Assembly: GCA_030674475.1 (NCBI GenBank)
Contig: JAUSCZ010000035.1
Location: forward strand, 74,682 to 138,681
DNA from: Candidatus Omnitrophota bacterium
Lineage (GTDB): Bacteria > Omnitrophota > Gorgyraeia > Gygaellales > UBA12090
Direction of reading: 5' to 3'
DNA length: 64,000 nucleotides
The notes beneath the pieces are model-generated. The model saw only the letters and a list, made by a program, of their open reading frames with translations, was not told where the DNA came from and ran no database searches. This document shows, piece after piece, positions 3,209-63,445 of this stretch (position 1 is its first letter; the number at the start of each line of letters is the position of its first letter). The position numbers and the translations under genes were made by a program.

Positions 3209-3685
3209 CTAACCTTCTAAATTCTCAAACATTTCTTCGTGGGTTATCTCTTCTCCCAGTATGTGAGTTACCAACTGATAAGTATCGTGGTCTTTACCAA
3301 AGGTTTTCTTGGCAATCTTATTATAGACCTCAATTGCCCCAGCCTCAGCCGCTTCCACTAATTTAATAATCCCATCGTAATCGGAAAGTTCCTTGACTAC
3401 TCCCGGATAAGGAGCATTGGCATTTTTCTCTAAGTTAACCGGATTATTAGTGGGAAGTCCGCCCAGCTCAATAATTCTATTAGCCACTTCCTGGGCATGC
3501 TCTAACTCATCCTTGGCAATTTTATTTAAAAACTCCGACATATCTTCATAACCCTTGCCTTCCACGGTTTGAGCCATATACCAATAGGCATAAAAAGCCA
3601 ACCACTCGTCGCAATAGGCCTTATCCAAATCCTTGATTAAATCTTTTAGATCTAAATCCGCTATTTCTTTAGCCTTTCTTCCCAT
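3209..3685 (-). CDS. bacterioferritin-like / ferritin-like di-iron carboxylate protein
   Basis: 158 aa with two E-x2-H motifs (DELEHAQ, EEITHEE) in a four-helix ferritin-like layout, similar to Bfr. Confidence 0.6.
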   Translation of the reverse strand: MGRKAKEIADLDLKDLIKDLDKAYCDEWLAFYAYWYMAQTVEGKGYEDMSEFLNKIAKDELEHAQEVANRIIELGGLPTNNPVNLEKNANAPYPGVVKELSDYDGIIKLVEAAEAGAIEVYNKIAKKTFGKDHDTYQLVTHILGEEITHEEMFENLEG

Positions 3686-11753: not shown

Positions 11754-11782
11754 GTAGGGGCAGGTTCAGAACCTGCCCCTAC
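11754..11782. repeat. REP-like palindrome variant GTAGGGGCAGGTTCAGAACCTGCCCCTAC overlapping the stop codon of the MiaB-like gene; likely terminator
   Basis: Perfect inverted repeat read from the sequence. Its left arm GTTAAATCAGTAGGGG is duplicated at 11684-11699. Confidence 0.65.
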
Positions 11783-13140
11783 ACTTTTTCCGCGATAAGG
11801 CCGTCTTTGTGGATTTTTAGCGGCCGGGCGGTAACAATTGTATTTACCGCGATTCCCGGCCCCTCAGGGAGAAATACCTTGATATAATTTCCGCTATGGC
11901 TGGGGAAAAATCCATCATCCGCGAAGCCGCCTGGCGATTCAACCAGCACGTCCAGATCCTTACCAATATATTGCCGGCAGAAATCCCGCGCTAATTCCTG
12001 AGCCAATTCCCGCGCCTGCTTTATCCTATCTTTGATAATCTCGGGCCTCACCGTTGCCGGAAATCTCCAAGCGGCTGTATTCTTACGTGGGCTAAAAGGA
12101 AAGATGTGTATCTTTGCCGGGCGGACTTCTCTTAAAAAATTAAGGGTATTCTTAAAATTTTCCTCTTCTTCCCCGGGAAAACCCACCATAATATCGGTAG
12201 TCAACCCGATATCCGGCATAAGCCTCCTCAGCTTAAGGATTAACTCGCGGCAATCTTCAGCTGAGGCCTTGCGGTTCATCAACTTCAATAGTGTATCATC
12301 CCCACTTTGAAAAGAAATATGCAGATGAGGCATCAGCTTCTTAGAGGAAGCCATCTTTTCTGTCAGGCAATCGCGGACATCCAGGGCTTCAATTGAGCTA
12401 AGCCGGATACGCGAAATCCCGTCAATTTCCTCTAAGGCTTCAATAACCCTAAGCAAGCCGTCTTTAAGGCCCAGATCCTTTCCATAAGCGCCTAAGCAAA
12501 TCCCGCAAAGCACTATCTCCTTATAGCCGTTTTCAGCTAAACCTCTGGCTTCCTCAATAATTTCCACTAAAAAGCGGCTGCGGGATGAACCGCGCAATCT
12601 GGGAATTATACAATAAGAACAGCCGTTATCACAACCGTCCTGAACCTTCAGGAATGCCCGGGTGTGCCTATGAAAAGCGCTGATGGTTCGACTACGCTCA
12701 CCATCAATCCTGAGCGAAATCGAAGGACTGATGGTTGGTTTTTTAATACCTGATAACAGTTCAACTCTGGGAAGTAACTGTGTCATTGCGAGGGGTTTTT
12801 CAGTGTTAGCTAAAATAAAATCGGCAAGACGGTCTTTCTCTTGGTTTCCTAAAACCCCTGCCACCCCTTTAAAGCGCTTTAGCTTCTCCGGGTCATTTTC
12901 CGCGGAACAACCGGTAACAAAAACCCGGGCCCGGGGGTGAGAGCGAGAGAGTTTGCGAATCTCCTCTTGAGATAAAGTATCGGCCCTGCGGGTAACCGCG
13001 CAGGTATTCACTATATACACATCCGCGCCGGGTGAATCCTTGCTCTCTTTAAATCCCAGGGCAATCATTCTCTCCCGCAGAACCTGGCTTTCATATTGAT
13101 TAACCTTACAACCTAAAGTTTTAACCTCAAATGTTTTCAT
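11779..13140 (-). CDS. MiaB/RimO-family radical SAM methylthiotransferase (ORF called to 13173; probable start at 13140, MKTFEVKTLGC)
   Basis: N-terminal MTTase cysteines (KTLGCKVNQYES), a radical SAM CSYC motif, and a C-terminal TRAM-like region. Confidence 0.8.
   Translation of the reverse strand: MKTFEVKTLGCKVNQYESQVLRERMIALGFKESKDSPGADVYIVNTCAVTRRADTLSQEEIRKLSRSHPRARVFVTGCSAENDPEKLKRFKGVAGVLGNQEKDRLADFILANTEKPLAMTQLLPRVELLSGIKKPTISPSISLRIDGERSRTISAFHRHTRAFLKVQDGCDNGCSYCIIPRLRGSSRSRFLVEIIEEARGLAENGYKEIVLCGICLGAYGKDLGLKDGLLRVIEALEEIDGISRIRLSSIEALDVRDCLTEKMASSKKLMPHLHISFQSGDDTLLKLMNRKASAEDCRELILKLRRLMPDIGLTTDIMVGFPGEEEENFKNTLNFLREVRPAKIHIFPFSPRKNTAAWRFPATVRPEIIKDRIKQARELAQELARDFCRQYIGKDLDVLVESPGGFADDGFFPSHSGNYIKVFLPEGPGIAVNTIVTARPLKIHKDGLIAEKV
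12680..12732. repeat. in-frame intragenic palindromic element, family A copy 1 (CTGATGGTTCGACTACGCTCACCATCAATCCTGAGCGAAATCGAAGGACTGAT)
   Basis: 52 of 53 nt identical to 13693-13745, which lies inside a different gene and reading frame. Confidence 0.8.
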
Positions 13141-13141
13141 A

Positions 13142-13930
13142 CTATGACGTGAATAAACGCAAAAAGGCCACAACGCTGATTGCCGCGGTATCTACCTTCA
13201 AAACCAAATCTCCCAAAGACGCCCCAATACAACCGTTTTCCTTGGCTGACTTGATTTCCCGTGGGCTAAAATCGCCTTCCGGGCCGATAAAAATTATTAT
13301 TGAGGAGGGCTTAGTGCGCTGTGTAATAAAATCGCAAAAAACCTCTTTTAGGGATTTATTTCCTGGGCCTAAATGCGGAATAACCGCCAGTTCATAATTT
13401 TTTACCTGAGAGACAACTTTACTAAATTCACTGATCGGCTCAATCTCCGGAAGTTTTATCCTGCCGCACTGCTTAGAGGCCTCAACCGCAATCGCCTGCC
13501 AGCGCTTCAGCTTTTCTTTAGCCTTCTCAGGAGAATATTTAACTATGGTTCTTTCAGTCTTTATAGGTATAATCCTATCCACACCCAGATCCACGGTCTT
13601 TTCAATAATATAGTCCATCTTGACTTTCTTAGGCAGGGCGCAGGCTAAAGTGAGAGCTAATTCTGCAGACATAGCTTTTCTGACTTTACCCACTGATGGT
13701 TCGACTACGCTCACCATCAATCCTGAGCGAAGTCGAAGGACTGATAACTCCACCTTATTCTTAGCAATACTATCAATCAGACACTCGTATTCCCGGGACT
13801 TACCGTCAAAAACCAGCACCTGGTCTCCTTTTTTAAGCCGCCTAACCGAAGACAAGTGATGAATCTGGCCGGGGTCTAAAATAGTTATTCTATCCCGGAT
13901 TATATTCGCGCGAGGGCAATAGATACGCAT
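13142..13930 (-). CDS. rsmE: 16S rRNA (uracil1498-N3)-methyltransferase RsmE
   Basis: PUA-like N-terminal domain plus a SPOUT C-terminal domain, ~260 aa. Confidence 0.7.
   Translation of the reverse strand: MRIYCPRANIIRDRITILDPGQIHHLSSVRRLKKGDQVLVFDGKSREYECLIDSIAKNKVELSVLRLRSGLMVSVVEPSVGKVRKAMSAELALTLACALPKKVKMDYIIEKTVDLGVDRIIPIKTERTIVKYSPEKAKEKLKRWQAIAVEASKQCGRIKLPEIEPISEFSKVVSQVKNYELAVIPHLGPGNKSLKEVFCDFITQRTKPSSIIIFIGPEGDFSPREIKSAKENGCIGASLGDLVLKVDTAAISVVAFLRLFTS
13693..13745. repeat. in-frame intragenic palindromic element, family A copy 2
   Basis: Same 53 nt as 12680-12732. Translated in rsmE as SVLRLRSGLMVSVVEPSV, versus ISPSISLRIDGERSRTISA in the MiaB-like gene. Confidence 0.8.
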
Positions 13931-14014: not shown

Positions 14015-16219
14015 TTGGTGTTGTCAATGCTGTCACTTATAATGTCACTCATAATCTTCTGCTTAGGATTAGGTTCGATTATCTCCCAGTTCGTATTTCT
14101 GCGTGAACTGCACACCACCTTCCAGGGAAATGAACTCTCCTTGAGCCTGATATTATTCTCCTGGCTATTTGGTTCCGGAATAGGCGGCCTCTTAGGATTT
14201 TTCTTTTCCTTAAGGAAAAGAAAATCTATCCATTCGAATTACCTCAAAAATTTATTAAGCCTCATCCTGATATTCTCCGCCTTTTGGCTTTTTATCAGCC
14301 TATTCCTCAGCCGCGGCTTAAATCTGTTTCTCTCTATCAGTCCTTTTGAAATACTCCAGCCCGGGCAAATCCTCTTGATTTCAACCATAGTCATAGTCCC
14401 TCAGACAATTACCGTGGGATTATCCTTTATCCTTATCTGCTCAATAATCCAGAATCCCATTAAGGCTTATCTTTTAGAGGCCCTGGGGGCGTTTTTCGCC
14501 GGCCTGTTAAGCCTGATCCTGATAAAATATTTTAACAACTGCCAAATCATCTGGACAATAGCAATAATTTATACCGCATCCGGCCTTCTGCTTTTAAATA
14601 AAAAACTCACATATTATCGGCTCCTGCTAATAATATGGGCCTCCTGCGCTATCTTATCTCTAGCCATGCTTAGCAAGATTGAAGAGAGCACCCAAAATCT
14701 GCGCTTTGGACCTCAAAAACTTATTTACTCTACAGATTCTATCTATGCCAATATCGCGATTGTCAAAAACGCTGAATACTCCTACAGCCTTTATGAAAAT
14801 GGTAAACTCTCTTTCTCAACTGAAGACAGCGAATCAATTGAAGAATGGGCCCATATGCTTTTACTCAGCCACGCCACGCCGCGAAAGATTTTGCTTATCG
14901 GAGGAGGCGTCTCCGGAGTCATCTCCGAAATACTCAAACATCCAATTAAATCTATAGACTATCTGGAGCCGGATAAAAAGCTGATAGAATCTGTCCTAAA
15001 ACATATCCCCCAAAGCGCCTTTTATGGCCTTAGAGATAAAAAAGTAACTATATACAATCAAGACGCCCGGCCTTTCATCAAAGCTGCTTTTACTAAATAC
15101 GACTTAATTATTCTAAATTTAGGCGGCCCCTCCAGCTTGCAGTTAAACCGCTTCTACACCCAGGAGTTCTTTGAAAAGATAAAGAATATTTTAAGCCAAG
15201 AAGGCAGATTCTGTTTTTCTTTTGAATCCAAGGAAGATATCCTCGCCGGACAACTCCTGAAATATAACTCCTGTCTCTATAAAAGCGCTAAATCGGTATT
15301 CCCTTATCTTCAACTTATTCCCGGCGAACGCCTGACCCTCATCGGCTCAAGCGAAAATATCCCTAAAATAAACCCCGAAGAATTAGCCGCGAGATTTAAG
15401 GAAAGAGACATCCAAAGCAAATACTTTACGCCATATCATATCAAGGCAAAACTATTCCGGCAGGAGTATATCCAAAAAAGGCTGGAGGAAAATTTTAACC
15501 TTGCCAGCATAAACCGCGATTATTATCCTTCAGGTTTTTTCTATTATTTAGGCCTGCGGGGAAAACAAAGCTGGTTGAATTTCAACCGGATGTGGGAACT
15601 CTCCGGAAAAATAAAAATGATTTATGGCTTTGGCTGTATGGAAAGCCAAACCATTGCCTTGCTGGCTTACTGGATTGCCACGATGCTAATCCTTGGGGTT
15701 ATTGGACGCAAGAATATCGTTAATTTGTCCGTCTTCTCCAGCGGCTTCTATGGTATCGCCTTAGCAATAATTATCAGCCTGCTCTTTCAGATAAATCTGG
15801 GCTTTCTTTATTACCGCCTGGGAATGATTGTGGCTAATTTTATGTTAGGGCTTTCCTTAGGAGGGATTTTGTTTATATACCTGCGGAAAACAAAGCTATC
15901 CTGGGAAAGGGCGTTATTTTTATCGGAAATAGCCTTAGGAATTATTTCTCTACTGGCCGCGTTTATCTTAAAAGATAACCAACTCACTTATTTCCTGCTT
16001 ACCTTACTGGCGGGAATTATAATCGGCTTTGAATTCGGAATATTCTATAGCCGGAAAAAGACAATTACTATTTATATTTTAGATTTGTCCGGGGCCTGTC
16101 TGGGGAGCCTGTTGACCGGCTTAATCTTTGTTCCGGTATTAGGCATATATAACACCTGTTTACTTATTTCATCCGCCAAGCTTATCACTGCTTTTTTTCT
16201 GAGAATACCAAAGCGCTGA
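14015..16219 (+). CDS. multi-pass membrane protein fused to spermidine synthase-like (PABS) domain
   Basis: Many N- and C-terminal TM helices surround a central LLIGGGVSGV...IDYLEPD aminopropyltransferase-like Rossmann motif. Confidence 0.65.
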   Translation: MVLSMLSLIMSLIIFCLGLGSIISQFVFLRELHTTFQGNELSLSLILFSWLFGSGIGGLLGFFFSLRKRKSIHSNYLKNLLSLILIFSAFWLFISLFLSRGLNLFLSISPFEILQPGQILLISTIVIVPQTITVGLSFILICSIIQNPIKAYLLEALGAFFAGLLSLILIKYFNNCQIIWTIAIIYTASGLLLLNKKLTYYRLLLIIWASCAILSLAMLSKIEESTQNLRFGPQKLIYSTDSIYANIAIVKNAEYSYSLYENGKLSFSTEDSESIEEWAHMLLLSHATPRKILLIGGGVSGVISEILKHPIKSIDYLEPDKKLIESVLKHIPQSAFYGLRDKKVTIYNQDARPFIKAAFTKYDLIILNLGGPSSLQLNRFYTQEFFEKIKNILSQEGRFCFSFESKEDILAGQLLKYNSCLYKSAKSVFPYLQLIPGERLTLIGSSENIPKINPEELAARFKERDIQSKYFTPYHIKAKLFRQEYIQKRLEENFNLASINRDYYPSGFFYYLGLRGKQSWLNFNRMWELSGKIKMIYGFGCMESQTIALLAYWIATMLILGVIGRKNIVNLSVFSSGFYGIALAIIISLLFQINLGFLYYRLGMIVANFMLGLSLGGILFIYLRKTKLSWERALFLSEIALGIISLLAAFILKDNQLTYFLLTLLAGIIIGFEFGIFYSRKKTITIYILDLSGACLGSLLTGLIFVPVLGIYNTCLLISSAKLITAFFLRIPKR

Positions 16220-17864
16220 AAGTATATTTTTCGGTTTTCGCGTCCTTCCAGGAGTCAGCAGGCAAGCCTGCCTTATGAGCGCATAAATTAGAAAGGAACT
16301 CCTCCTTATTCCAGCCGGTCTCTTCAGCCACCTGAGGCAAAAATACCCCCTGGCTCCACCCCCGTTTGATCAACAAACCGTGCGTGCCTAACTGAAACTC
16401 AGCCACATCATCAATCTTTTTTAAAGGCGAGAGGACCGAAATTTCAATCTCAATATCCTTAAGCTCATCCTTGGTTACCGGCTCAAACCGGGGATCTCCG
16501 GTTGCCGACTCTATGGCCATATCCCTGATGGTTTCAAAAAGAGGCTTCTGGCCGATAATATTACCGATACAGCCTTTTAGCTTACCTTGCTTATGGATAG
16601 TTACAAAGGCACCGTTAATAGCCTTTAGCTGAGGATCATCTTCGCTAAAATCTAATTTTTTCCCGCTGGTTACATATTCCTGAATAGTCTTACGGGCAAT
16701 CTCCAGTAATCGCGCTTTCTGCGTATCATTCAACATAACTGTTTCTCCTGTCTTATCCTTATTAATTAAAGCTGATAAATACCCCACAGTCCACACCCCT
16801 TTTATCTTTTTACCGGAAACCTTAGCGGAATTAGTATGCCCCAAAAACTTTATTTGATTATAGCCTAAGCTTTGCGCGGTAAGTATCGCGCTGACCACCG
16901 GCAATCCCCCGCACATCTGGATTGAACCGTCTTTTAACTTCGCGTAAATATCCTGGGCAGACCCCGTTAGAAGCCTCTTACCGCTTTCAGATTGCTCCCC
17001 AGCTTCTAACGGGGCAGGCATCTTCCCTAAATAGGACAAAGTCAGCTTATCTACTCTCTCGGTTTCCTGGTAGTCATAACTGTGGCAAAGGTCCGTGGAA
17101 GCAATCAGCAACACATCTGAACGGCCCGCGATGGCTTTATTTAATATATCCGCCAAAACATTTAAACCGTGAAGGTCCGCGTCTCCAATCAAAATGGGAA
17201 CTATCTTAAAATCATCCAGGGTCTTTTGTAAGAAAGGAAGCTGAACCTCAATGGAATGTTCTTTTTCAAAAGCCTGAGGGATAAAGCTAATATTTTGGGA
17301 AGGAGAAATTATTTTTTGCGTAAAATCAGAGTCTACTTCTAGGTCTCCCAGGGGGGTTTGGAACTTACCGGATGGATATACTGAGACTCCCTTAAAATAA
17401 TACTGGTGACTGGGCCCCAGGAGGACCACGGTTTTATAAGGACGGCCTTTAATTAACTTATAGCCCAAGGCGGCGGTCGGCCCGGAGAAATCATAGCCGG
17501 CATGGGGAGAAATCAAACAAAATATTTCGCCTGTGGTGAGCGGTGGGTTGGCCGCGTTAAGCAGGTTTTCAACTTTATGGCTAAGCTCATCTTTATCCGC
17601 GGGATAAAACTGCCCGGCCACATTCGGTTTTTTTATCTCCTCGCCAAAGCTTAGGACATTAAAGCCAAAAAGCGCTCCCCCAAAAAAAAGGAAAAAAACA
17701 ATTGCTGTCCCTACTTTTCTCTTTGAAAAAAAGGAACTTCCCCCTTTCGTAAAGGGGGATGGAGGGGGATTTTCTAGGTTAGGGGAAATTTGGGAGCATT
17801 TACACAATGCACTAAGCCCAGATTCCGGCGATTGTTTCCTGACAAAACTTGCAATGCCCATCAA
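16185..17864 (-). CDS. AmmeMemoRadiSam system fusion protein: Memo1-like (protein B) plus AMMECR1 (protein A) domains, with N-terminal hydrophobic segment; start codon uncertain
   Basis: The Memo-like core is ISPHAGYDFSG...LCHSYDY. The AMMECR1 core is GAFVTIHKQGKLKGCIGNI...DPRF. A radical SAM partner is adjacent. Confidence 0.7.
   Translation of the reverse strand: MMGIASFVRKQSPESGLSALCKCSQISPNLENPPPSPFTKGGSSFFSKRKVGTAIVFFLFFGGALFGFNVLSFGEEIKKPNVAGQFYPADKDELSHKVENLLNAANPPLTTGEIFCLISPHAGYDFSGPTAALGYKLIKGRPYKTVVLLGPSHQYYFKGVSVYPSGKFQTPLGDLEVDSDFTQKIISPSQNISFIPQAFEKEHSIEVQLPFLQKTLDDFKIVPILIGDADLHGLNVLADILNKAIAGRSDVLLIASTDLCHSYDYQETERVDKLTLSYLGKMPAPLEAGEQSESGKRLLTGSAQDIYAKLKDGSIQMCGGLPVVSAILTAQSLGYNQIKFLGHTNSAKVSGKKIKGVWTVGYLSALINKDKTGETVMLNDTQKARLLEIARKTIQEYVTSGKKLDFSEDDPQLKAINGAFVTIHKQGKLKGCIGNIIGQKPLFETIRDMAIESATGDPRFEPVTKDELKDIEIEISVLSPLKKIDDVAEFQLGTHGLLIKRGWSQGVFLPQVAEETGWNKEEFLSNLCAHKAGLPADSWKDAKTEKYTFSALVFSEKKQ
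16961..17019. repeat. in-frame intragenic palindromic element, family B copy 1 (ACCCCGTTAGAAGCCTCTT...CTTCTAACGGGGCAGGC)
   Basis: About 85% identical to 35410-35470. Encodes MPAPLEAGEQSESGKRLLTGS in the middle of the Memo-AMMECR1 protein. Confidence 0.75.
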
Positions 17865-18954
17865 TAAGATTATTTACGGTAACACTATAGCCGACCCTGA
17901 CCAATAAGGCCTGAGCGCATTTTGGGCAAAAGGTGGTCTCGCCCTGATGTCCGGGGACATTCCCGATATAGGCGTATTTAAGGCCGGCCTTCTTAGCCAA
18001 GCTTTGAGCTTTCTCTAAAGTTGCCACTGGGGTCGGGGCTAAATTCGCCAGCTTATACATCGGCCAAAAGCGGGAAAAATGTATTGGCGTGTCCGGACCC
18101 AAGTTATCCCTTATCCATACGCACATCTCCTCCATCTCTTCTGAAGAATCATTTAACCCGGGTAAAACCAGATTAGTCAGTTCTAAGTGCACCTTTTCTT
18201 CTTTGATTATCTTTAAGGTTTGGAGGATATTCTCTAAATTTCCAAAACAAATATCTTCATAGTATTTCTGGCGGAAGGCCTTTAAGTCAATGTTAGCCGC
18301 GTCCAAATGTTTACAGAGATTGCGCAGGGGCTCTTCATTGATGAAGCCGGCGGAATGCATTATATTCTTAAGGCCGCTTGAGCGGGCCAAGGCCGCGGTA
18401 TCCAGCATATACTCATAAAAAATAGTCGGCTCGGTATAGGTATAGGCGACAGTCTGGGAGCCGGACTCTTTGGCCTGTTTAACTATATCTTGCGAACTAA
18501 GAAAAACCGGCTGAACATCCTCGGGCTTGCTTTGAGAAATCTCCCAGTTCTGGCAGAATTTGCACCTTAAATTACATCCGGCGGTGGCGATGGAAAATGC
18601 GGATGTCGCGGGAAGAAAATGAAAAAGCGGCTTTTTCTCTATCGGGTCAATATGCACTGCCGCCGCCTGAGAATGCACCAGGGTATATAAAACCCCCTGA
18701 TTATTTTCCCTCACCCCGCAAAAGCCTCTCTGCTTCTCAGTTATCAGGCATTTACGCGGACAAAGCTGACATTGCAGAGACTTTTCGTCTATGGGCTTCC
18801 AATATAAAGCCTTACTTTTATCTAAAGAGGCCCAAGCCGATTGAATCTTATCCGCGCCCAAACCCAAAAGGCCCATTCCCCCGCTTATCACAACCACCTG
18901 TTTTAAAAAATCTTTTCTGGTCATCATAATCGTTTTGGGGTCAGACCTCAACAA
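17812..18954 (-). CDS. AmmeMemoRadiSam system radical SAM enzyme with Tat-like N-terminal signal peptide
   Basis: CPRKC...C and CNLRCKFCQNWEIS clusters. The N-terminus MMTRKDFLKQVVVISGGMGLLGLGA...AWA resembles a twin-arginine signal (RK variant). Confidence 0.7.
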   Translation of the reverse strand: MLRSDPKTIMMTRKDFLKQVVVISGGMGLLGLGADKIQSAWASLDKSKALYWKPIDEKSLQCQLCPRKCLITEKQRGFCGVRENNQGVLYTLVHSQAAAVHIDPIEKKPLFHFLPATSAFSIATAGCNLRCKFCQNWEISQSKPEDVQPVFLSSQDIVKQAKESGSQTVAYTYTEPTIFYEYMLDTAALARSSGLKNIMHSAGFINEEPLRNLCKHLDAANIDLKAFRQKYYEDICFGNLENILQTLKIIKEEKVHLELTNLVLPGLNDSSEEMEEMCVWIRDNLGPDTPIHFSRFWPMYKLANLAPTPVATLEKAQSLAKKAGLKYAYIGNVPGHQGETTFCPKCAQALLVRVGYSVTVNNLIDGHCKFCQETIAGIWA

Positions 18955-19839: not shown

Positions 19840-20253
19840 CTAAGGACAACTCACCGCAGAACAACTTGCACAACCAGCGCCAGTCTTACTGGTCGTGCCG
19901 TTCTCATACATGTTTATAGTATAGTTGGTAGTGCCACAGGGATTTTTTTCCGAATTTCTTAGCGCCCGAGCTACAACAGTATTCGCAGACTCATCAACTA
20001 CCGTATAGGTAAAATAGGTGCCATTGGTAGTATTGTCAATATCTAAATTATCAAAACTATTAGTATAATTCCCGTTTTCTAAATAATAGCGCGTCTGGGC
20101 GCCGCGGATAGCGGCTAAGTTGGTTAGGGCTTCGCTCTGGCGGGAGCGCTCCACGGTTTTGGTATACTGGGGTATGGCCAGGGCGGACAGGATGCCAATG
20201 ATCACCACCACTACCACCAGTTCGATTATATTAAAGCCGGAATTTTTATTCAT
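19840..20253 (-). CDS. type IV pilin / pseudopilin
   Basis: GFNIIELVVVVVIIGILSALAIPQY prepilin N-terminus. Confidence 0.75.
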   Translation of the reverse strand: MNKNSGFNIIELVVVVVIIGILSALAIPQYTKTVERSRQSEALTNLAAIRGAQTRYYLENGNYTNSFDNLDIDNTTNGTYFTYTVVDESANTVVARALRNSEKNPCGTTNYTINMYENGTTSKTGAGCASCSAVSCP

Positions 20254-20257
20254 TTTT

Positions 20258-20327
20258 ACCCCTCCCCGCCTCCCCTTGCTAAGGGGAGGATTTCTTGTCG
20301 TAGGGGCGGGTTCGAACCCGCCCCTAC
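20258..20327. repeat. composite intergenic element: SD-sequestering hairpin module (CCCCTCCCCGCCTCCCCTTGCTAAGGGGAGGATTTCTT) plus REP palindrome GTAGGGGCGGGTTCGAACCCGCCCCTAC
   Basis: Fills the whole 76-nt intergenic gap and ends 4 nt from the pilin ATG. Copies occur at 37752-37821, 38456-38495 and 59380-59424, with related arms at 26623-26760. Confidence 0.8.
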
Positions 20328-20329
20328 TA

Positions 20330-26622: not shown

Positions 26623-26760
26623 GTAGGGGCGGGTTCGAACCCGCCCCTACCCCCGATAAGGGGAGGATTTCTTTCCGCCTGCCCCGCCAGCGGCGGTGGC
26701 CTCCCCCTGATAAAGGAAGTTTTCTTATCCCCTCCTTTACAAGGAGGGGTAGGGGAGGTA
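26623..26760. repeat. composite repeat: REP palindrome GTAGGGGCGGGTTCGAACCCGCCCCTAC followed by several CCCC/GGGGAGG-type hairpins
   Basis: Read directly from the sequence. Sits in the intergenic region between the PilM-like stop (26766) and the PilO-like start (26611). Confidence 0.75.
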
Positions 26761-28641: not shown

Positions 28642-28758
28642 AATCTGCCTCTGGCGCTTAGATTTTACTTGATTCTGAGCTCTGCGAAGAATCTTAAGGA
28701 ACAATCTGCCTCTGGCGCTTAGATTTTACTTGATTCTGAGCTCTGCGAAGAATCTTAA
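28642..28758. repeat. two tandem 61-bp direct repeats (AATCTGCCTCTGGCGCTTAGATTTTACTTGATTCTGAGCTCTGCGAAGAATCTTAA...), motif AGATTTTACTTG present 3 times
   Basis: Read from the sequence. Lies upstream of the excisionase-like gene, so these are candidate operator/iteron sites or a small RNA. Confidence 0.7.
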
Positions 28759-33317: not shown

Positions 33318-35054
33318 TTATTCCTTTATCTTTACAACATTTAAAGACAGGTATTCTACATTTACTTCAAAATCATCATAAAGCACACCGCAATATTCCA
33401 CTTTTGGAAGGAAATAATAAAGCCTTGCCTCGTAAGTCTTGCCCGGAGCTAAAACAATAGAGGGAACATAGGTCGTGCCAAGTATTGAGAATGTCGCGGA
33501 CAGACTCCTCACATTCATCATGCTTTTATGTACCGGCACACCTGATCCTTTCTCTGTAATTCCAACCAGGGTATAAAAATTTATTCCTTCATCAGTAATG
33601 TCGTGGTTAATTAATACCTGCCAGATAATATTCAAAGCTTCACCGGTCTTAGCTACAAATTCATAGGTAACCCCTTCATGTGTAGTGTCGGGGTAGGTAC
33701 CTTTAATTTCTCTAAACAGCCCTGGGTTATCAACCAAACACGAAGTAACATCACTGGCATATCCGGCACATTGGCCAGCAGTGTATGCAAGGCTATCACA
33801 ACCCGGACAGGCAGTCCTCTCCTCGCACTTACTTTCAGTACAATTTTTATCGAAACCTGGGTCTCTTGTTGTTTCCCCATCTTCAAGCATTACACCAGAG
33901 CACACATTCTCTTCGCAGCAGGACTTACTGTCCTCGCATCTCTCATAATTATTGGCATAAGCGCTACAAGCACTAATGCAAGTCTTAAACGCATCTTTGA
34001 GCTTGTAAGTATAGGATGCCACTTTCACCTTGGCGATGCATTCTACATATCCGTTACAAGTACAAGTATCGCAGGTAGTAACATAAGTTGTACTGCAAGA
34101 AGGAGGCGGCGGAGTCCAGGGAGGAGGCGGCGGAGTCCAAGAAGTACAAGTAGTTACAGGAACACTAACACAGTTACAACTATACGTGCAAGAGTCAGAC
34201 ACATTATCTACTATATTACTGCAAGAAGTAGCACTACTACTATTGCAATCCCCAGCCGGATCCCGAGAAGGACAACTATTGTCTAAGGTACAAGAAGAAC
34301 ATCCGACTGGTGTGCGAGATGTTCCGTCATTTTCCCAGACATAGGTTACATCATAATAAGAAGTCAAACCATCGCATCTGGGCGGGCCCGAATTCTCGGA
34401 ACAGGCCTGAAAAATAGGGCTGAGGCTTGGCCCGCAGGTTGCCGGACAACTCCAGATCCTATACCCATCAATATCGGTTCCTGTTACGGTACAGTCATCA
34501 GAGCAGTTTGGCGTCAGCTCATCGCTATCCGCGTCCGGACAACCTCGTCTCTGCAGGCCATAAGGAGAACCTGATGAAACTGAGCCAGAACTACAGGTAA
34601 GATTTTCACAATAAGTAGAATCGTCGCTTGATCTCGAACCGCCAGTACCTGTTGTGCCTACACCACATTCAGTTTGCGCGCAATCATCAACCTGAAAAGG
34701 AGGCTCAGTGCAATTATAATTAGCCAACGTATCATGATCACCTGAACTGCACTTAATTGCTTTGGGAAAAGAAGCAGTGGTCAAACAGCAATCCGGACAT
34801 TCCTTCTTAAGCTCAACACATTTATTACATTCTGAAACACTGCTAAGTGCGGTCGAACAATCTCCTCCGGTTAACAGATCTTTTCCGTCTAACTGGCTAA
34901 GAATTATTGGGTCAGTCCCGTAATCCTTGCTCTCTGTATCAGAAGTATAATTAGACGGCAGGTATTTTATGCGCTTATCCTTAGGATAGGCTGGGCTATT
35001 AAAGAAAGCCAGAAATAACAAGAGTAGAATTAAGGCCTTTTTATTTTTTACCAT
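33318..35054 (-). CDS. large secreted cysteine/threonine/serine-rich protein with PPPPWTPPPP motif; candidate pilus-tip adhesin
   Basis: Signal peptide, then a ~400-aa segment carrying dozens of Cys (CSSC, CTCNGYVEC, CCEENVC). The operon context with pseudopilins supports a pilus-associated role. Confidence 0.5.
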   Translation of the reverse strand: MVKNKKALILLLLFLAFFNSPAYPKDKRIKYLPSNYTSDTESKDYGTDPIILSQLDGKDLLTGGDCSTALSSVSECNKCVELKKECPDCCLTTASFPKAIKCSSGDHDTLANYNCTEPPFQVDDCAQTECGVGTTGTGGSRSSDDSTYCENLTCSSGSVSSGSPYGLQRRGCPDADSDELTPNCSDDCTVTGTDIDGYRIWSCPATCGPSLSPIFQACSENSGPPRCDGLTSYYDVTYVWENDGTSRTPVGCSSCTLDNSCPSRDPAGDCNSSSATSCSNIVDNVSDSCTYSCNCVSVPVTTCTSWTPPPPPWTPPPPSCSTTYVTTCDTCTCNGYVECIAKVKVASYTYKLKDAFKTCISACSAYANNYERCEDSKSCCEENVCSGVMLEDGETTRDPGFDKNCTESKCEERTACPGCDSLAYTAGQCAGYASDVTSCLVDNPGLFREIKGTYPDTTHEGVTYEFVAKTGEALNIIWQVLINHDITDEGINFYTLVGITEKGSGVPVHKSMMNVRSLSATFSILGTTYVPSIVLAPGKTYEARLYYFLPKVEYCGVLYDDFEVNVEYLSLNVVKIKE

Positions 35055-35473
35055 TGGTCACATCCAGTTCTATTAATAAGGCCGCCTTGGTTAGTAATAG
35101 TCATATTCCTACCACTACAGGCCAAACCGGAAACCGCGCGGGTAGCCGTGGCAGTAAAGCTTGGGCTGGTGGTGGCGTTAATAGAATAAGTAAAACTGTC
35201 TCCTTCTAAATCAATCCCTAAATTCTCAGTATCATTAGTATACTCTCCCTCGTTCAAATAATACCTCTGCTGGGCAGAGTAGATTAATTGCAGGTTAGCC
35301 TCGGCTTCTTTGGCCTTATTTTTCTCTGAAGATCGGCTAAAATTACCCATATTCAGGCTAACCAAAATCCCGATAATTACCAAAACCACCAGCAACTCAA
35401 TCATAGTAAACCCCGTTAGAAGCCTCTTGCCTCTTACAGGTTGCTCATTAACTTCTAACGGGGCAGGCCCCAT
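35048..35473 (-). CDS. type IV pilin with 21-aa leader (ORF track starts at TTG 35485; ATG at 35473 has an AGGAGA SD upstream)
   Basis: ...GKRLLTG|FTMIELLVVLVIIGILVS prepilin cleavage/methylation site. Confidence 0.7.
   Translation of the reverse strand: MGPAPLEVNEQPVRGKRLLTGFTMIELLVVLVIIGILVSLNMGNFSRSSEKNKAKEAEANLQLIYSAQQRYYLNEGEYTNDTENLGIDLEGDSFTYSINATTSPSFTATATRAVSGLACSGRNMTITNQGGLINRTGCDQW
35410..35470. repeat. family B palindromic element copy 2, encoding the pilin leader peptide
   Basis: About 85% identical to 16961-17019. The CCCCGTTAGAAG / CTTCTAACGGGG arms are an inverted repeat. Confidence 0.75.
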
Positions 35474-36091
35474 TTTCACTTGCAAATCTCCTTATAAGTG
35501 CGATAAATCGCACCGCTACGCAACATGAGATAAATCGCCTACCTGCGGTAAGCAGGCACCGCTACGCGACATGAGTGACCCACGGTAGGCGGAGGTAAAA
35601 CCCGCGCCCTTATCACTCCCAAGGAGCAACTGCATCTCAGAGTATCGGTATAACCAACTCAAGAACAGACTTTTAAAAACTCCTGCTATAATAAAAAACC
35701 AAGCTCTACTTTTTAAGGGTAGCTTGGCTTCGCACTCTAAGAATAAAACCGAGTGCTCTTTTCTTGTTTGAGCTTAACAACTTGGCTTTATTCTGGTTTT
35801 AAAGTTAAGTTGTCGGTGCGCCAGGCTACCTTATCCAGAGGGCTTTCCCCTCCTTTACTTCTGGTAAGACTTAGGTCCTTTAGCTTTGCGCCCCGCGGTT
35901 TCCCGCGGTTTGCCCCGGCCTTAATTTCCTGTGCCGGCCTACCGGTTTCCTGTTTGCGCGGTAGATTTTCGGATGTGGTAATTAAAGTATACACCATAAA
36001 AGAACTAATTACAAGGGTAAAACCGCCTTTTCAGGAAAGCGCTTTCTTGGGAGGAATTTTATCGGTTGAACTCTTTGGTTATCGCTTAGCT

Positions 36092-37345: not shown

Positions 37346-37747
37346 TTAATCCCGGTCGGTGGCGATATTTACCTGTTCAACCCCTAAATCCCGGGCCATA
37401 TCCCAGACCTCAACCACCCGGCCCAGCCTTGCTCCCTGATCCGCCATAATCAAAACCGGGCGTTTGGTTTTCTTGGCCTCATTAAGAACAATCTTAATCT
37501 CTTTGGCAGTTAAAACCTTTTTATCCAAATAAATGACATTTTCCCGGCTGATAGTAATAATAATGGTGTCTCCTTCGCTGGCCTCCGCGCTTACCGCCTT
37601 GGGTAGATTCACCTTGATTCCCGACTGCACGATAAAACTTGAGGTCAGCATAAAAAATATCAAAAGCTGAAACACCATATCTATCAAAGGGGTAATATCA
37701 ATCTGGCGCAGGCCATGCTCCAATTCCATATGTCTTTTAAAGCGCAT
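37346..37747 (-). CDS. exbD: biopolymer transport protein ExbD/TolR
   Basis: Single TM segment (IDITPLIDMVFQLLIFFMLTS) plus a periplasmic domain; 133 aa. Confidence 0.85.
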   Translation of the reverse strand: MRFKRHMELEHGLRQIDITPLIDMVFQLLIFFMLTSSFIVQSGIKVNLPKAVSAEASEGDTIIITISRENVIYLDKKVLTAKEIKIVLNEAKKTKRPVLIMADQGARLGRVVEVWDMARDLGVEQVNIATDRD

Positions 37748-37751
37748 TTTT

Positions 37752-37821
37752 ACCCCTCCCCGCCTCCCTTTGTTAAGGGGAGGATTTCTCCCCGTAGGGG
37801 CGGGTTCGAACCCGCCCCTAC
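37752..37821. repeat. composite intergenic element (SD-hairpin module plus REP palindrome) between exbB stop and exbD start
   Basis: ACCCCTCCCCGCCTCCCTTTGTTAAGGGGAGGATTTCTCCCCGTAGGGGCGGGTTCGAACCCGCCCCTAC. The exbB stop codon TAG lies inside the palindrome. Confidence 0.8.
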
Positions 37822-38450
37822 TCCGTAAGGAAATTGACTAATTCGGTTGCCGCTTTTTCCATCTCTAAAATCACGGAGTTAACCCGGCCTACCAGGTAAT
37901 TATAAGTGATAAAAGCCGGTATGGCCACCACCAGGCCTGCCACCGTGGTTAAAAGCGCCTCCCAAATTCCCCCGGCCAGGTCTCCCGGGCTGACCGGGTG
38001 GCTGGCGGTAGACTTGACTTGAATAGTATTAAAACAAGTAACCATTCCGGTAACCGTGCCTAAAAGCCCTAAAAGAGGGGCAATGTGGGCAATGGTGGCC
38101 AAAACGTTTAAATTCTTTTCTAATATCGGTATCTCATACAAAGAGGCGTCTTCAATAGCCTCCTTAATATCCTGACGGCTCCTGCCATGCTTTAGTATCC
38201 CGGCCTTTAAAATCTGGCCTACCGGGCTTAAGGTTTTATCACAGTCATAAATTGCCTCTTTTATCTTCTGTTGTTTTAACTTCTCCAATACATTCCTCAG
38301 GAAATAAGTAGAATTTATTTTTATCTTTCTCAGATACCACAATTTCTCTATAGTTATTGCCAGGGCCCATATTGAACTGATAAGTATGGGCCACATAACC
38401 GGCCCGCCAGCCAAAAAAAGCTTCCAAAAATTCATCTGCCAGATATTCAT
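37818..38450 (-). CDS. exbB: MotA/TolQ/ExbB proton-channel family protein
   Basis: Three TM helices with a conserved ExbB core (GLLGTVTGMV). Confidence 0.85.
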   Translation of the reverse strand: MNIWQMNFWKLFLAGGPVMWPILISSIWALAITIEKLWYLRKIKINSTYFLRNVLEKLKQQKIKEAIYDCDKTLSPVGQILKAGILKHGRSRQDIKEAIEDASLYEIPILEKNLNVLATIAHIAPLLGLLGTVTGMVTCFNTIQVKSTASHPVSPGDLAGGIWEALLTTVAGLVVAIPAFITYNYLVGRVNSVILEMEKAATELVNFLTE

Positions 38451-38455
38451 TTTCT

Positions 38456-38495
38456 TACCCCTCCCCGCCTCCCCTTGTTAAGGGGAGGATTTTTT
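38456..38495. repeat. SD-hairpin module copy (CCCCTCCCCGCCTCCCCTTGTTAAGGGGAGGATTTTTT) directly upstream of exbB ATG
   Basis: Read from the sequence; this copy has no REP palindrome attached. Confidence 0.8.
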
Positions 38496-38499
38496 GCCT

Positions 38500-38640
38500 C
38501 CAACAAGTTATTAAACTCTAAATCCTAAATTCTAAACTCGAAACCCTAAACAAATCCCAAACCCAAAACATTATATTTTTAGTTTTGAGTTTATGATTTT
38601 GCCTGCCTGCCGGCAGGCAGGAGTTTGTTTAGGATTTAGG
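38500..38640. terminator. large inverted-repeat region (CTAAATCCTAAA... / ...TTTAGGATTTAGGG arms around the perfect palindrome GCCTGCCTGCCGGCAGGCAGG)
   Basis: Read from the sequence; lies downstream of the TPR gene stop. Confidence 0.55.
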
Positions 38641-58243: not shown

Positions 58244-59379
58244 TAGTTATATTTCGCGTTTATCCTGATATATTCCGGGGTCAGGTCTGAAGTGTAAACT
58301 ACGGCCTTACCTCTGCCAAGTCTTAAATCTATCTTGACTATTATATCCTTTTTCCGGAAAGAATCACCCTCTATTTTTATTTTTTCTCTTACCTCTACCC
58401 CGGATGCCCCCACCGCCGCCACTATCCTTCCCCAGTTAGCGCCTCCGCCGTAAACAGCGGTCTTGAAAAGATTGGAATTGGCCACGGCCAAAGCCGCTTT
58501 TTTAGCCTGCGTATTATCCTTGGCTCCGGATACCTGAATAGTTATAAACTTGCTGGCTCCTTCAGCATCCAAAATAATCATCTTGGCTAAACCCAGGCAA
58601 ATTTCACTTAAGGCAGTTTTAAATTTAGAAAAATTACGCGTGCCTAAACAGACTTTCTTGTTTTCCGCTAACCCGTTAGCCAAAATAATCACGCTGTCAT
58701 TAGTGCTCATACATCCGTCAATAGTAATCATATTAAAAGAATATTCAACTGCCTGCTTCAAGGCCTCTTTTAATGCCGAATACTCGATCAAGACATCCGT
58801 AGTGATAAAGCAAAGCATCGTAGCCATATCCGGAGCAATCATTCCCGCGCCCTTGGCAATTGCCCCGATAGTTACTTTTTTTCCGCCTATCTCTAACTCC
58901 CGCGCTAAGGCCTTGGGCTTAGTATCGGTAGTCATTATAGCCTGGGCTGTCTTATTACCGCTGCTTCTATCTAAAGAGCCAACCAAAGACGGCAAGGCCT
59001 TCTTTATCTTGGAGAAATCAAGCGGACGGCCAATAATTCCGGTTGAGGCAACCAGCACCATTTTTTTATCTATTCCCAACAACTCCGCGCTAAGGCAGGT
59101 GGTGTTCTTGGCCGTTTCCATTCCCGGCTTTCCGGTATAGCAATTAGCATTCCCACTGTTGACTATTATAGCTTGGGCTTTTTTTGATTTCAGATATTCC
59201 CGGCAAAGCTCAACCGGAGCCGCGGCAAACTTATTTTTGGTAAACATACCACAGGCGGATGCCGGGACATCGGAATATATCAAAGCCAAATCCAGGCCGC
59301 TGGATTTCTTTATCCCCGCCTCTATTGCCTGAGATCTAAACCCCTTAGCCAGGGTTATAGCGTTTTTATACTCTTTCAT
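58243..59379 (-). CDS. argJ: bifunctional ornithine acetyltransferase / N-acetylglutamate synthase
   Basis: ATMLCFITTD autoproteolytic site region. Confidence 0.85.
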   Translation of the reverse strand: MKEYKNAITLAKGFRSQAIEAGIKKSSGLDLALIYSDVPASACGMFTKNKFAAAPVELCREYLKSKKAQAIIVNSGNANCYTGKPGMETAKNTTCLSAELLGIDKKMVLVASTGIIGRPLDFSKIKKALPSLVGSLDRSSGNKTAQAIMTTDTKPKALARELEIGGKKVTIGAIAKGAGMIAPDMATMLCFITTDVLIEYSALKEALKQAVEYSFNMITIDGCMSTNDSVIILANGLAENKKVCLGTRNFSKFKTALSEICLGLAKMIILDAEGASKFITIQVSGAKDNTQAKKAALAVANSNLFKTAVYGGGANWGRIVAAVGASGVEVREKIKIEGDSFRKKDIIVKIDLRLGRGKAVVYTSDLTPEYIRINAKYN

Positions 59380-60440
59380 ACCCCTCCCCGCCTCCCCTTG
59401 TTAAGGGGAAGATTTCTTAACAGGCCCTCGGTTTCTTTAAAGCCGCAGAGCAAATTCATATTCTGCACTGCTTGAGCCGAAGCGCCCTTAAGCAAATTAT
59501 CTATCGCGGAAATTATAATAATTGTTTTCTGATCCGTACTAATCTTAACGCCGATATCGCAAAAGCTGGTTCCCTGAACATCCCTCAAACAAGGAAATTC
59601 GCCTTCGTTTTTTATCCTCACCAAAGGCTTATCCTTATAGTATTTTTTATAAATATTTATTAACTGGTGGCTGGTGGCTGGTGGCTGATGGCTGACTTTC
59701 ATATATATCGTTTCCAAAATTCCCCTTTCTATGGGCAAAAGATGGGGAACAAAGGTAACCTTTATCTTTTTCTTGGCCAGCTTAGACAGCTCCTGCTCTA
59801 TTTCAGGCGTATGCTGATGGGCATCAACCTTATAGGCCTTGAAATTGTCCTTTAGTTCGAGCCAGAAAGGATCATCCGCCGGCTTTCTGCCGGCTCCGCT
59901 GTAACCGCTTTTGGCATCAATAATAATCTCTCGCGGGCTAAGTTTTTCTTTTAATAAGGGAGCCAGGGCCAAAATCGCCGCGGTGGGGTAACATCCGGGA
60001 TTAGCTATAAAATCCGCCTTTTCTATCTTTAAACCGTTAATCTCCGGCAAGCCATAAATTGCCTTTTTAATATTCGCCTTATCCTTATGCTTGACCTTAT
60101 ACCAGGCTTCATAAAGCTCCCAGTCATTCAGCCGGTAATCCGCGCTTAAATCAATAACCTTTTTCCCTCCCCTTAGCAGGACGGGAACCACATCCATAGA
60201 GTTGGTATGCGGCAAGGCCAGGAAAAACAAATCCGCGGATTGGACGGCCTTAGTTAGATTAAGATTATCGCAATACAGATCCAACCGGCCCTTAAATTGA
60301 GGAAAAATTTCAGCTATCGGAACCGGCTTATCCAGCCTGGCCGTGAGATAACTTATCTTTACCTGGGGATGTCTTAACAAAATCCTGATTAACTCTTCCC
60401 CGGTATATCCCCTTACCCCGATTATTCCTACCCTCACCAT
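59376..60440 (-). CDS. argC: N-acetyl-gamma-glutamyl-phosphate reductase
   Basis: Semialdehyde dehydrogenase family (GVRGYTG, active-site Cys region). Carries two embedded repeat tracts: a (CTGGTGG)n run at 59664-59694 and the SD-hairpin module at 59380-59424. Confidence 0.85.
   Translation of the reverse strand: MVRVGIIGVRGYTGEELIRILLRHPQVKISYLTARLDKPVPIAEIFPQFKGRLDLYCDNLNLTKAVQSADLFFLALPHTNSMDVVPVLLRGGKKVIDLSADYRLNDWELYEAWYKVKHKDKANIKKAIYGLPEINGLKIEKADFIANPGCYPTAAILALAPLLKEKLSPREIIIDAKSGYSGAGRKPADDPFWLELKDNFKAYKVDAHQHTPEIEQELSKLAKKKIKVTFVPHLLPIERGILETIYMKVSHQPPATSHQLINIYKKYYKDKPLVRIKNEGEFPCLRDVQGTSFCDIGVKISTDQKTIIIISAIDNLLKGASAQAVQNMNLLCGFKETEGLLRNLPLNKGRRGGV
59380..59424. repeat. SD-hairpin module copy embedded in the 3' end of argC, supplying the argC C-terminus (LLRNLPLNKGRRGGV*) and the RBS/start of argJ
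   Basis: ACCCCTCCCCGCCTCCCCTTGTTAAGGGGAAGATTTCTTAACAGG. The argC TGA stop overlaps the argJ ATG (ATGA). Confidence 0.8.
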
Positions 60441-62539: not shown

Positions 62540-62616
62540 AATATTTTAAACCATCGAACAAAGGAACAAAGAAGAACAAAGAAGACGCTTTATATAACTT
62601 ATTAATAGGCAATAAA

Positions 62617-63303
62617 TTACCTATTAACTATTTCTCTTCGCGGCCTACCATTCCGAGGCATAAATACTCCTCGCTCTAATACTAATCTTCTTAAGAATTC
62701 ACCTGAACCCAGCGGTTTTTCAAAATCATCAAATAATTCCTCTTCTTTTTCATCAAATTCCAGTAGAAAACTCTGATATTTCAATCTTCTTCCTTCAGCC
62801 GTTAGTCCAAAAGTGGCAAATAAAGGATTCTCCTCTGTAAGACTGTCCACTTTACCATAAATATAATATGCCGCGCTGCTAAACGGATATTCAGCCGCTG
62901 ACTGAACAAGCCCGGCATTAATCGGATTTCTCTCAATATATCTTCCGCAGGTTAATAGATATTCTTCCTTCTCGACAGCCTGGCATTTAAATCTACCCTG
63001 AAAAAGATGCCCAACGGAGTTATATTTTTTATGATAATAGTAAACATAAGAACGCGCGATACCGGCCATAATGGACGATATTTCTTTAGGATTATCCAAC
63101 GCCAGCAGGAGATGGTAGTGATTAGACATAATGACCCAGTGATGAATCCTTAAGTTACGCTGGCGGGTATATTTAGTTAATATCTCAATAAAACGGTTAT
63201 AATCTTCGTTATCATGGAAAATATTATTCTTGGCGTTTCCTCTATTAAAGATATGATAGATCAGCGACCCAGTTATACTATAAGAACGGGCTGTATAAGG
63301 CAT
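62617..63303 (-). CDS. IS200/IS605-family Y1 (HUH) transposase, REP-associated tyrosine transposase (RAYT)-like
   Basis: HUH motif (SNHYHLLL), a downstream catalytic Tyr region (YVYYYHKKY), and a ~228 aa size. Confidence 0.7.
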   Translation of the reverse strand: MPYTARSYSITGSLIYHIFNRGNAKNNIFHDNEDYNRFIEILTKYTRQRNLRIHHWVIMSNHYHLLLALDNPKEISSIMAGIARSYVYYYHKKYNSVGHLFQGRFKCQAVEKEEYLLTCGRYIERNPINAGLVQSAAEYPFSSAAYYIYGKVDSLTEENPLFATFGLTAEGRRLKYQSFLLEFDEKEEELFDDFEKPLGSGEFLRRLVLERGVFMPRNGRPRREIVNR

Positions 63304-63370: not shown

Positions 63371-63445
63371 TTGTTATGTAAAGCGTCTTCTTAAAACTTT
63401 AAAAATTTGTTATGTAAAGCGTCTTCTTAAACTTTTAAATTTTAA
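63371..63445. repeat. tandem direct repeat (AATTTGTTATGTAAAGCGTCTTCTTAAAACTTTAAA x2) upstream of the transposase gene
   Basis: Read from the sequence. Confidence 0.7.

Follow-up and report, generated by a model that had tools for sequence, protein, structure and literature searches.

The window, a 64,000-nt stretch of a Candidatus Omnitrophota contig, carries on its minus strand at 16185-17864 the gene for a Memo-AMMECR1 fusion protein (AmmeMemoRadiSam system protein B/A), which adjoins its radical SAM partner (17812-18954). The open reading frame (ORF) encodes 559 aa, with Pfam matches to Memo at residues 80-363 and to AMMECR1 at 387-554. Within it lies the short palindromic element that is the subject of this report, which a first-pass annotation had marked as a 59-nt sequence at 16961-17019, its family B, with terminal inverted arms and read in frame. 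The quoted letters match the window exactly, the arms are perfect over 12 bp both here and in the second 59-nt copy described below, and the ORF runs through the element as ...GKMPAPLEAGEQSESGKRLLTGSAQ.... The core of copy 1 (16963-17013, minus strand) is 51 nt long and consists of an arm CCCGTTAGAAG, a 29-nt inner part and an arm CTTCTAACGGG, read as P-L-E...L-L-T-G. With the terminal base pair C...G added, the full element is 53 nt (16962-17014) under the model of terminal inverted repeats (TIRs) and a 4-bp target duplication for which the evidence is given below. Comparison of filled and empty alleles places the left copy of the duplicated target at 16958-16961 (CAGA on the plus strand, TCTG on the coding strand) and the right copy at 17015-17018 (CAGG on the plus strand, CCTG on the coding strand), and the two agree at three of four positions.

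The second copy had been reported at 35410-35470 with about 85% identity; the figure stands, at 51 of 59 bases (86%), and the copy itself ends at 35468. The eight differences between the two copies are confined to the inner 29 nt; the arms are the same in both, as are the shared flanks (A... and ...CAGGC). Exactly four matches to the 12-mer CCCCGTTAGAAG or its complement exist in the window, all of them at the two copies, against a chance expectation of about 0.008 exact 12-mer matches. Each copy can form a hairpin of 12-15 bp with a folding energy of -23 to -30 kcal/mol (z about -3 relative to shuffled sequences). Copy 2 also has a coding role, missed in the first-pass annotation: it is read on the minus strand in the same frame as copy 1, as MGPAPLEVNEQPVRGKRLLTG/FTMIELLVV (slashes mark the processing site in peptides and site boundaries in DNA). 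Its 51-nt core (35412-35462, minus strand) falls among the codons for the leader peptide in a type IV prepilin gene (35048-35485, minus strand), whose product has Pilin_GH/ComP_DUS domains and an N_methyl motif. Translation probably begins at GTG (35479) or ATG (35473), downstream of the Shine-Dalgarno sequence GGAG, and the copy gives the peptide (M)GPAPLEVNEQPVRGKRLLTG, directly followed by the cleavage/methylation motif FTMIELLVV.

Both copies are insertions relative to close relatives. Alignment of the Memo-AMMECR1 protein with its 20 nearest Memo/AMMECR1 relatives, a comparison proposed in the first-pass annotation, revealed an insertion of 19 aa. It is carried by the window protein and by P0002, P0003, P0005 and P0006, and is missing from P0004 and P0007-P0010, which are equally close (83-90% identity), and from all distant homologues. 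One further relative, P0011, retains only the left-arm part (MPAPL), which looks like the remnant of a partial in-frame deletion. At the DNA level the gap is exactly 57 nt (16963-17019, minus strand), ie 19 codons reading PAPLEAGEQSESGKRLLTG, residues 283-301 of the protein. The site is filled in the window and in loci L121, L123 and L124, where it reads AT/GCCTGC-core-GTCTGC/CC, and empty in L119 (AT/GGCTCC) and L120 (AT/GTCCGC/CC). Several groundwater samples yielded the filled allele in separate assemblies. Judged by these alignments, copy 1 is evidently a recent insertion into a loop of the Memo domain, which has gained 19 aa in frame.

The position of the insert was also examined in an AlphaFold2 model of the fusion protein, built from 81 sequences with a mean predicted local distance difference test score (pLDDT) of 84.5. 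Residues 283-301 lie in coil between helices at 265-280 and 301-312, as was anticipated when a loop position was suggested. The pLDDT of the coil at residues 286-300 is below 50, and that of the remaining Memo domain is above 90. Because this low-scoring coil is bounded by confidently predicted helices, the insert is taken to be a floppy loop between two secondary-structure elements. On this model it would be translated as a disordered loop of 19 residues that leaves the enzyme unbroken.

The prepilin gene gives a corresponding picture. Pilin orthologues P0126, P0129, P0132, P0135 and P0136 begin MKTG/FTMIELLVV, with a four-residue leader and no insert, and an extra 19 residues are present in the window pilin and in P0121-P0125. 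The 57 nt missing from the short-leader orthologues, (M)KTG/FTMIE, correspond to 35412-35468 (minus strand). The empty allele in L128 is GGAGATTTGTAAGTGAAAACGGGGTTTACTATG, compared with GGAGATTTGCAAGTGAAAATGGGGCCTGC-core-GTTTACTATG in the window, a difference of 57 nt; in a shorter excerpt the same alleles are GTGAAAACGGGGTTTACT and GTGAAAATGGGGCCTGC-core-GTTTACT. The right arm and flank of copy 2, CTT CTA ACG GGG TTT ACT, encode L-L-T-G/F-T, so that the glycine at -1 and the mature N-terminus of the pilin are preserved. Copy 2 would thus have landed at the prepilin Gly-Phe-Thr codons, the right arm and the target together rebuilding the peptidase site, and its product probably becomes part of the leader that prepilin peptidase removes. 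We infer that the insert is translated and that the extended leader is cleaved.

Further copies were sought by scanning one genome per GTDB species for the pattern CCCGTTAGAAG, 20-40 nt, CTTCTAAYGGG. The first-pass annotation had proposed looking for more copies, and the arm consensus CCCGTTAGAAG/CTTCTAACGGG was found at at least 118 loci in several phyla; the element counts given below (117, 120 and 109) are drawn from among the matches listed. Among these matches the main hosts are Patescibacteria (many classes), Omnitrophota and Planctomycetota (Pirellulales and Phycisphaerae), joined by Elusimicrobia, Riflebacteria, Ratteibacteria, Nitrospirota and single metagenome-assembled genomes (MAGs) labelled as Gammaproteobacteria and cyanobacteria. 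Outside the window, several contigs of a single MAG can bear copies. The inner part defines subfamilies, namely a 60-nt form with two inner hairpins, forms of 42, 45 and 48 nt, AT-rich forms and the 51-nt form; the last, which is that of the window, was also found in Riflebacteria (L021) and in another Omnitrophota MAG (L092). Scanning a metagenome collection that holds no Hainich data with the family-B inner consensus returned only five loci. A single viral contig matched the arm pattern, so phages are not an obvious vector. No Rfam family matched the window elements at the gathering threshold, or 13 of the loci at E values up to 1. A literature search with the arm sequence returned unrelated primers and one irrelevant integron paper, and a keyword search returned no description of in-frame palindromic elements in these phyla. 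The family is a previously undescribed one, spread across many bacterial phyla.

The anatomy of the element was worked out from the flanks of 117 elements. To the 11 nt of each arm that are set by the search pattern, one covarying base pair is added on each side (93% and 91% Watson-Crick). Next to the core stands a Y on the left side and an R on the right, paired with each other in 93% of the elements. The TIRs are therefore 13 bp, Y-CCCGTTAGAAG-Y ... R-CTTCTAACGGG-R. Beyond them the flanks are direct repeats, for example GTTTAC...GTTTAC, GTAAAC...GTAAAC and GCTTGC...GCTTGC. Direct matching is found in one register only, with 3.86 matches compared with 2.30 +/- 0.11 in shuffled pairs; the four central flank positions are identical in 72-78% of elements and the outer two are at background. 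A perfect 4-bp target duplication is present in 66 of the 117, and 18 more match at three of four positions. The reconstructed target is symmetric, R/Y-N-N-R/Y, the commonest duplications being TTTA/TAAA, TTCA/TGAA and TCAA/TTGA. Since the flanks match as direct repeats in a single register, the element is Y-core-R with a 4-bp duplication. A hairpin extending beyond the arms was considered and rejected: pairing between mirrored flank positions is seen at -1, -2 and -5 in 93, 70 and 73% of the elements, respectively, and at -3 and -4 in only 14 and 21%, ie the apparent complementarity is that of a 4-bp direct repeat whose first and last bases happen to complement each other.

Empty sites with a single copy of the target are found at polymorphic positions in near-identical Hainich groundwater populations. 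There are four such sites, in the Memo gene, the pilin leader, an RsmE-like gene and a SpeE-like gene. At the last two the window itself holds the empty allele. The target in the RsmE-like gene, GCAGAC (coding strand GTCTGC), is present once in the window at 13665-13670; in L123 and L124 a 63-nt sister element with arms CCCGTTAGAGA/TCTCTAACGGG lies there with GTCTGC on both sides. The target in the SpeE-like gene, ATAAAC (coding strand GTTTAT), is present once at 15509-15514, and in L119 and L123 it holds a 63-nt sister element with the same arms, as G-TTTA-[C..core..G]-TTTA-T. The insertions are thus real, polymorphic and in frame, with the anatomy of TIRs and target duplication, and the family that makes them extends across phyla.

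Many copies lie within genes. Core length is divisible by three in 78 of 120 elements, where one third would be expected, and most cores are 42, 45, 48, 51 or 60 nt. An open frame of at least 150 codons reads through 40 of 109 scorable elements, all but two of which have a length that is a multiple of three (38/40). A check that avoids circularity, by asking for long open stretches abutting both sides in any frame, gave 36/78 for elements with such lengths and 9/42 for the others. The arm has a TAG in frame 2; on each strand, two of the three frames are free of stops. With these lengths and frames, insertion into a gene usually adds only 16-22 residues. The frame CCC GTT AGA AG. (PVRS...SNG) is used 31 times and.CCG TTA GAA (PLE...LLTG) nine times. 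The arms also occur outside genes, being untranslated at about half of the loci. Because the arms are read in two frames and are found outside genes as well, the conservation is at the DNA level and does not reflect a protein module. Host genes include those for NAD-dependent DNA ligase, DNA polymerase I, Mfd, RibD, PabB, aminopeptidase N and a radical SAM enzyme. Aligned to solved structures, LigA shows a gap of 19 residues in its zinc finger and Pol I one of 18 residues in its 5'-nuclease domain, each located exactly at the element.

Prepilin leaders recur among the insertion sites. The commonest target, G/TTYA/C, is also a spelling of Gly-Phe-Thr (GGG TTY ACN), and an element lies immediately upstream of four of the 11 prepilin N-terminal motifs present in the roughly 0.8 Mb of loci. 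The leader reads G-F-T-P-L-E...L-L-T-G/F-T-L-I-E in L058 (Sedimentisphaerales) and in L071 (Patescibacteria), with a clean TTCA duplication, and a family-B relative lies in the leader region of a Riflebacteria prepilin. This recurrence may reflect target preference or a safe harbour.

[quoted passage not shown] Our confidence is high that it is a mobile element inserting in frame, and moderate as to how it transposes. A symmetric target with a fixed, short duplication is what would be expected from a transposase that makes staggered cuts in double-stranded DNA. The element would insert into double-stranded DNA at a loosely palindromic R/Y-N-N-R/Y, mostly G/TTYA/C, with the central 4 bp duplicated, and would be mobilised in trans by a transposase making 4-bp staggered cuts. 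Each insertion adds the core length plus 6 nt. Insertion sequences of the IS5, IS1380 and IS701 types make 4-bp target duplications, some at short palindromic targets. The duplication length and the symmetric Y-N-N-R would fit a DDE transposase of that kind with 4-bp staggered cuts, but no such transposase bounded by the arms of the element was found.

Like the MITEs Correia/NEMIS, ERIC, RUP and Nezha, the element is short (cores of 42-62 nt), has no transposase gene of its own, carries TIRs and a target duplication that can be seen against empty sites, can form a hairpin in RNA, and is dispersed and variable between strains, with two copies in 64 kb and four polymorphic sites. In-frame intragenic copies of ERIC-type elements are on record (PMC10969869). 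Unlike typical MITEs it is much smaller, its ends are nearly identical across phyla, a very high share of its copies is coding and in frame, it recurs in prepilin leader codons, and no parent insertion sequence is known for it. Except for that parent, it is a MITE by structural definition.

Several observations weigh against this interpretation. No autonomous element with these arms and no linked transposase was found in the window or in about 0.8 Mb of loci. A search of those loci for arm pairs 63-3500 nt apart with a matching duplication gave none that encloses a gene; it returned only sister short elements and composite or nested ones of 116-275 nt. The RAYT-like Y1 gene discussed below is the only transposase found in the window's set of 42 ORFs of 200 aa or more. 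Because the scan demanded exact arms, their invariance is in part an ascertainment artefact. The inner hairpins of the 60-nt subfamily keep their pairing through compensatory changes at nine pairs, which a plain cut-and-paste element acting on double-stranded DNA would not need; this hints either that the folded single strand matters or that template switching corrects the palindromes. Finally, the flanks of copy 2 are mismatched, with GCCTGC and GTTTAC on the coding strand (CCTG and TTTA, alike at one of four positions). Its left flank, expected to be GTTTAC, is identical to that of copy 1, and simple transposition would not give GCCTGC on the left of both copies. The hexamer likewise stands beside a non-matching partner flank in L104. 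Gene conversion between the copies, selection against a second G/FT site and carry-over of the flank are possible explanations.

In the close pilin relative L127 (about 100-330), the family-B copy has immediately on its left a longer sister element of about 150 nt, with arms CCCGTTAGAGA/TCTCTAATGGG. This longer element is inserted into GCCTGC, with GCCTGC on both its sides, so the hexamer can also serve as a target. In P0128 and P0130 the long element alone seems to be retained, which suggests recombination between neighbouring elements. Longer composites with the same or sister arms and matching 4-bp duplications were seen in L004, L005, L013, L014 and L043 (168-169 nt) and in L030 and L050 (225-275 nt). 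A short element is nested in most of them, an indication that elements insert into one another.

A strong hairpin, with covarying inner hairpins in the 60-nt subfamily, would also be expected of a repeat of the repetitive extragenic palindromic (REP) or REPIN type, which a Y1 (HUH) tyrosine transposase would move in the form of folded single-stranded DNA. REPs and REPINs too are short, GC-rich hairpin repeats in many copies. The window encodes a candidate at 62617-63303, a 228-aa Y1 protein closest to REP-associated tyrosine transposases (RAYTs; Pfam Y1_Tnp, E 1e-14; NCBIfam REP_Tyr_transpos, 70 bits, below the cut-off of 80), and it also contains REP-like palindromes tagged with GTAG. We nevertheless regard such an origin as unlikely. 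The arms of the element start YCCCGTTAG and bear neither GTAG nor CGTC at the foot of the hairpin; at polymorphic sites a symmetric 4-bp target is duplicated, and Y1 transposases make no duplication; and a third or more of the copies are intragenic, unlike REPs. No copy flanks the RAYT-like gene, which is bordered by a different repeat, AAGAAGACGCTTTAYATAAC, that occurs nowhere else in the window, and homologues of its product were found in only 2 of 134 loci, not beside elements. The unrelated flanking repeats and the scarcity of homologues leave this gene unsupported as the mobiliser. The pairing across a 13-bp stem, the sequence conservation between phyla, the covariation of the inner stems and the several copies that adjoin start codons, as CGGGatgaa, could instead belong to a conserved structured RNA, a cis-regulatory or processing hairpin that is not mobile DNA. 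This is quite unlikely: Rfam has no match, the copies occur in coding and non-coding DNA with no consistent neighbouring gene, and target duplications, presence or absence in close relatives and the excess of frame-preserving lengths argue for insertion and translation.

A shared reading frame gives the two window copies similar peptides, (M)PAPLEAGEQSESGKRLLTG and (MG)PAPLEVNEQPVRGKRLLTG, one of which is a genuine leader peptide. A link at the protein level could be drawn from this, with a prepilin-leader-like module duplicated into the Memo gene and the DNA palindrome incidental. Such a module is very unlikely, however, as identity peaks in the DNA arms and is lowest in the inner part, 31 of the 40 coding copies elsewhere use the other frame, about half of the loci are untranslated, and the orthologous pilins have their four-residue leader and no module. 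Chance similarity, or an insertion created in assembly, has only the shortness of the repeat to recommend it and can be given almost no credence in view of two exact 12-mer inverted pairs, so far above the chance expectation, and of a filled allele found in independent assemblies from several samples. The MITE-like transposable element is preferred over all of these. A broader reading is possible but doubtful, in which the MITE-like element would belong to a cross-phylum superfamily of translation-ready transposable elements of 50-70 nt adapted to life in genes by a frame-preserving length, stop-free frames, a target (G-TTYA-C) that spells the prepilin Gly-Phe-Thr, and an insert placed in a cleaved leader; a conserved three-way-junction fold might then indicate movement via a folded single strand, by an enzyme not yet recognised as a transposase.

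The first-pass annotation had pictured a genome seeded with elements like the Rickettsia palindromic elements (RPEs) and tolerated in coding sequence. This inference is supported, as there are several other small palindromic in-frame indels relative to close relatives in and beside the locus. The present element, however, has the anatomy of a MITE, which goes beyond likeness to RPEs, is unrelated to them in size and host, and is not specific to this genome. As Ogata et al. (2000) are summarised in PMC10969869, RPEs are palindromic repeats of about 100-150 bp, confined to Rickettsia, that lie in frame in unrelated housekeeping genes and are translated and tolerated at surface regions. The same 2024 review of prokaryotic MITEs treats RPEs as the outstanding case of in-frame fusion, similar cases elsewhere being merely conjectured. 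The likeness is that both are palindromic, in frame in protein genes at surface positions, and both families seem adapted to stay open in frame. The present element nevertheless adds 48-68 nt, has clear 13-bp TIRs and a 4-bp target duplication, and is hosted by Patescibacteria, Omnitrophota, Planctomycetota, Elusimicrobia and others; with size, hosts and anatomy all different, it is not an RPE, and no kinship in sequence would be expected. It is best described as a very small variant of the MITE/RPE kind, new and extending across phyla.

Two further resemblances were dropped. The integron attC consensus is 5' RYYYAAC ... GTTRRRY 3'. In the element the order of the core boxes is reversed (GTTAGAA in the 5' arm, TTCTAAC in the 3' arm) and the last base is off consensus. 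A link to tRNA genes was suggested by a Saccharibacteria MAG (L097) in which the element (2549-2592) exactly fills the spacer between tRNA-Met (CAT) and tRNA-Leu (TAA); that copy simply occupies the spacer.

Other repeats and inserts were noted in and around the locus. Relatives of the Memo-AMMECR1 protein have variable inserts at four more places, and in L123 a different 42-nt in-frame insert, LGLSLEEGKAYPSG (about 1930-1975), stands between two TTAG sequences a little upstream of the family-B copy. In L110 a 60-nt family member (3579-3638) occupies the interdomain linker of another Memo-AMMECR1 fusion, unrelated to the first. A repeat family with CCCCTCCCCGCCTCCCCTTGYTAAGGGGAGG, probably family A of the first-pass annotation, is present in the window at 20251-20328, 37745-37822, 38450-38527, 59373-59450 and 26641-26679, and related peptides (PPPSPFTKGG) are found as variable inserts in the Memo-AMMECR1 relatives. 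A 53-nt unit with CTGAT at both ends occurs in two 98%-identical copies, at 12680-12732 in a MiaB-like gene and at 13693-13745 in the RsmE-like gene; the latter is a 48-nt in-frame insertion that relative L123 does not have. In the SpeE-like gene, which encodes a membrane protein, a 45-nt palindromic in-frame segment, GFGCMESQTIALLAY (15625-15669), is shared by the window and L120 but missing in L119 and L123. At 28642-28758 a 56-nt unit is perfectly duplicated in tandem, the two starts being 61 nt apart.

The Y1 gene (minus strand) has inverted copies of AAGAAGACGCTTTAYATAAC at 62579-62598, 63373-63392 and 63409-63428. The GTAG-tagged perfect palindromes, GTAGGGGCGGGTTCGAACCCGCCCCTAC, lie at 20300-20327, 26623-26650 and 37794-37821, with a variant at 11754-11782. 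They resemble classical REP sequences, form a different family from the element, and may be what the RAYT-like gene is partnered with. A c-di-GMP-I riboswitch aptamer (35812-35924, minus strand; 47 bits, gathering score 35) lies upstream of the copy 2 prepilin, about 330 nt away, and this prepilin seems to stand at the head of a type IV pilus cluster that spans about 21-35 kb and includes PilC, PilB, a secretin, PilO and PilM.

Until now, palindromic elements read in frame have been regarded as a peculiarity of Rickettsia. Here, comparable behaviour is found in five or six phyla at least, which are dominant in metagenomes from groundwater and sediment, and the proteins affected include core enzymes such as DNA ligase, Pol I, Mfd, RibD, PabB and Memo-AMMECR1. 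For annotation and phylogeny this means that unexplained loops of 16-23 residues in MAG proteins may be mobile DNA, not lineage-specific adaptations. The elements are natural presence/absence markers for the tracking of strains, and a tractable case for studying how proteins tolerate random loop insertions. The insertions in prepilin leaders suggest a safe-harbour strategy that can be tested. If the superfamily reading is true, such elements would be a general and overlooked source of loop insertions in the proteins of Patescibacteria, Omnitrophota and Planctomycetota.

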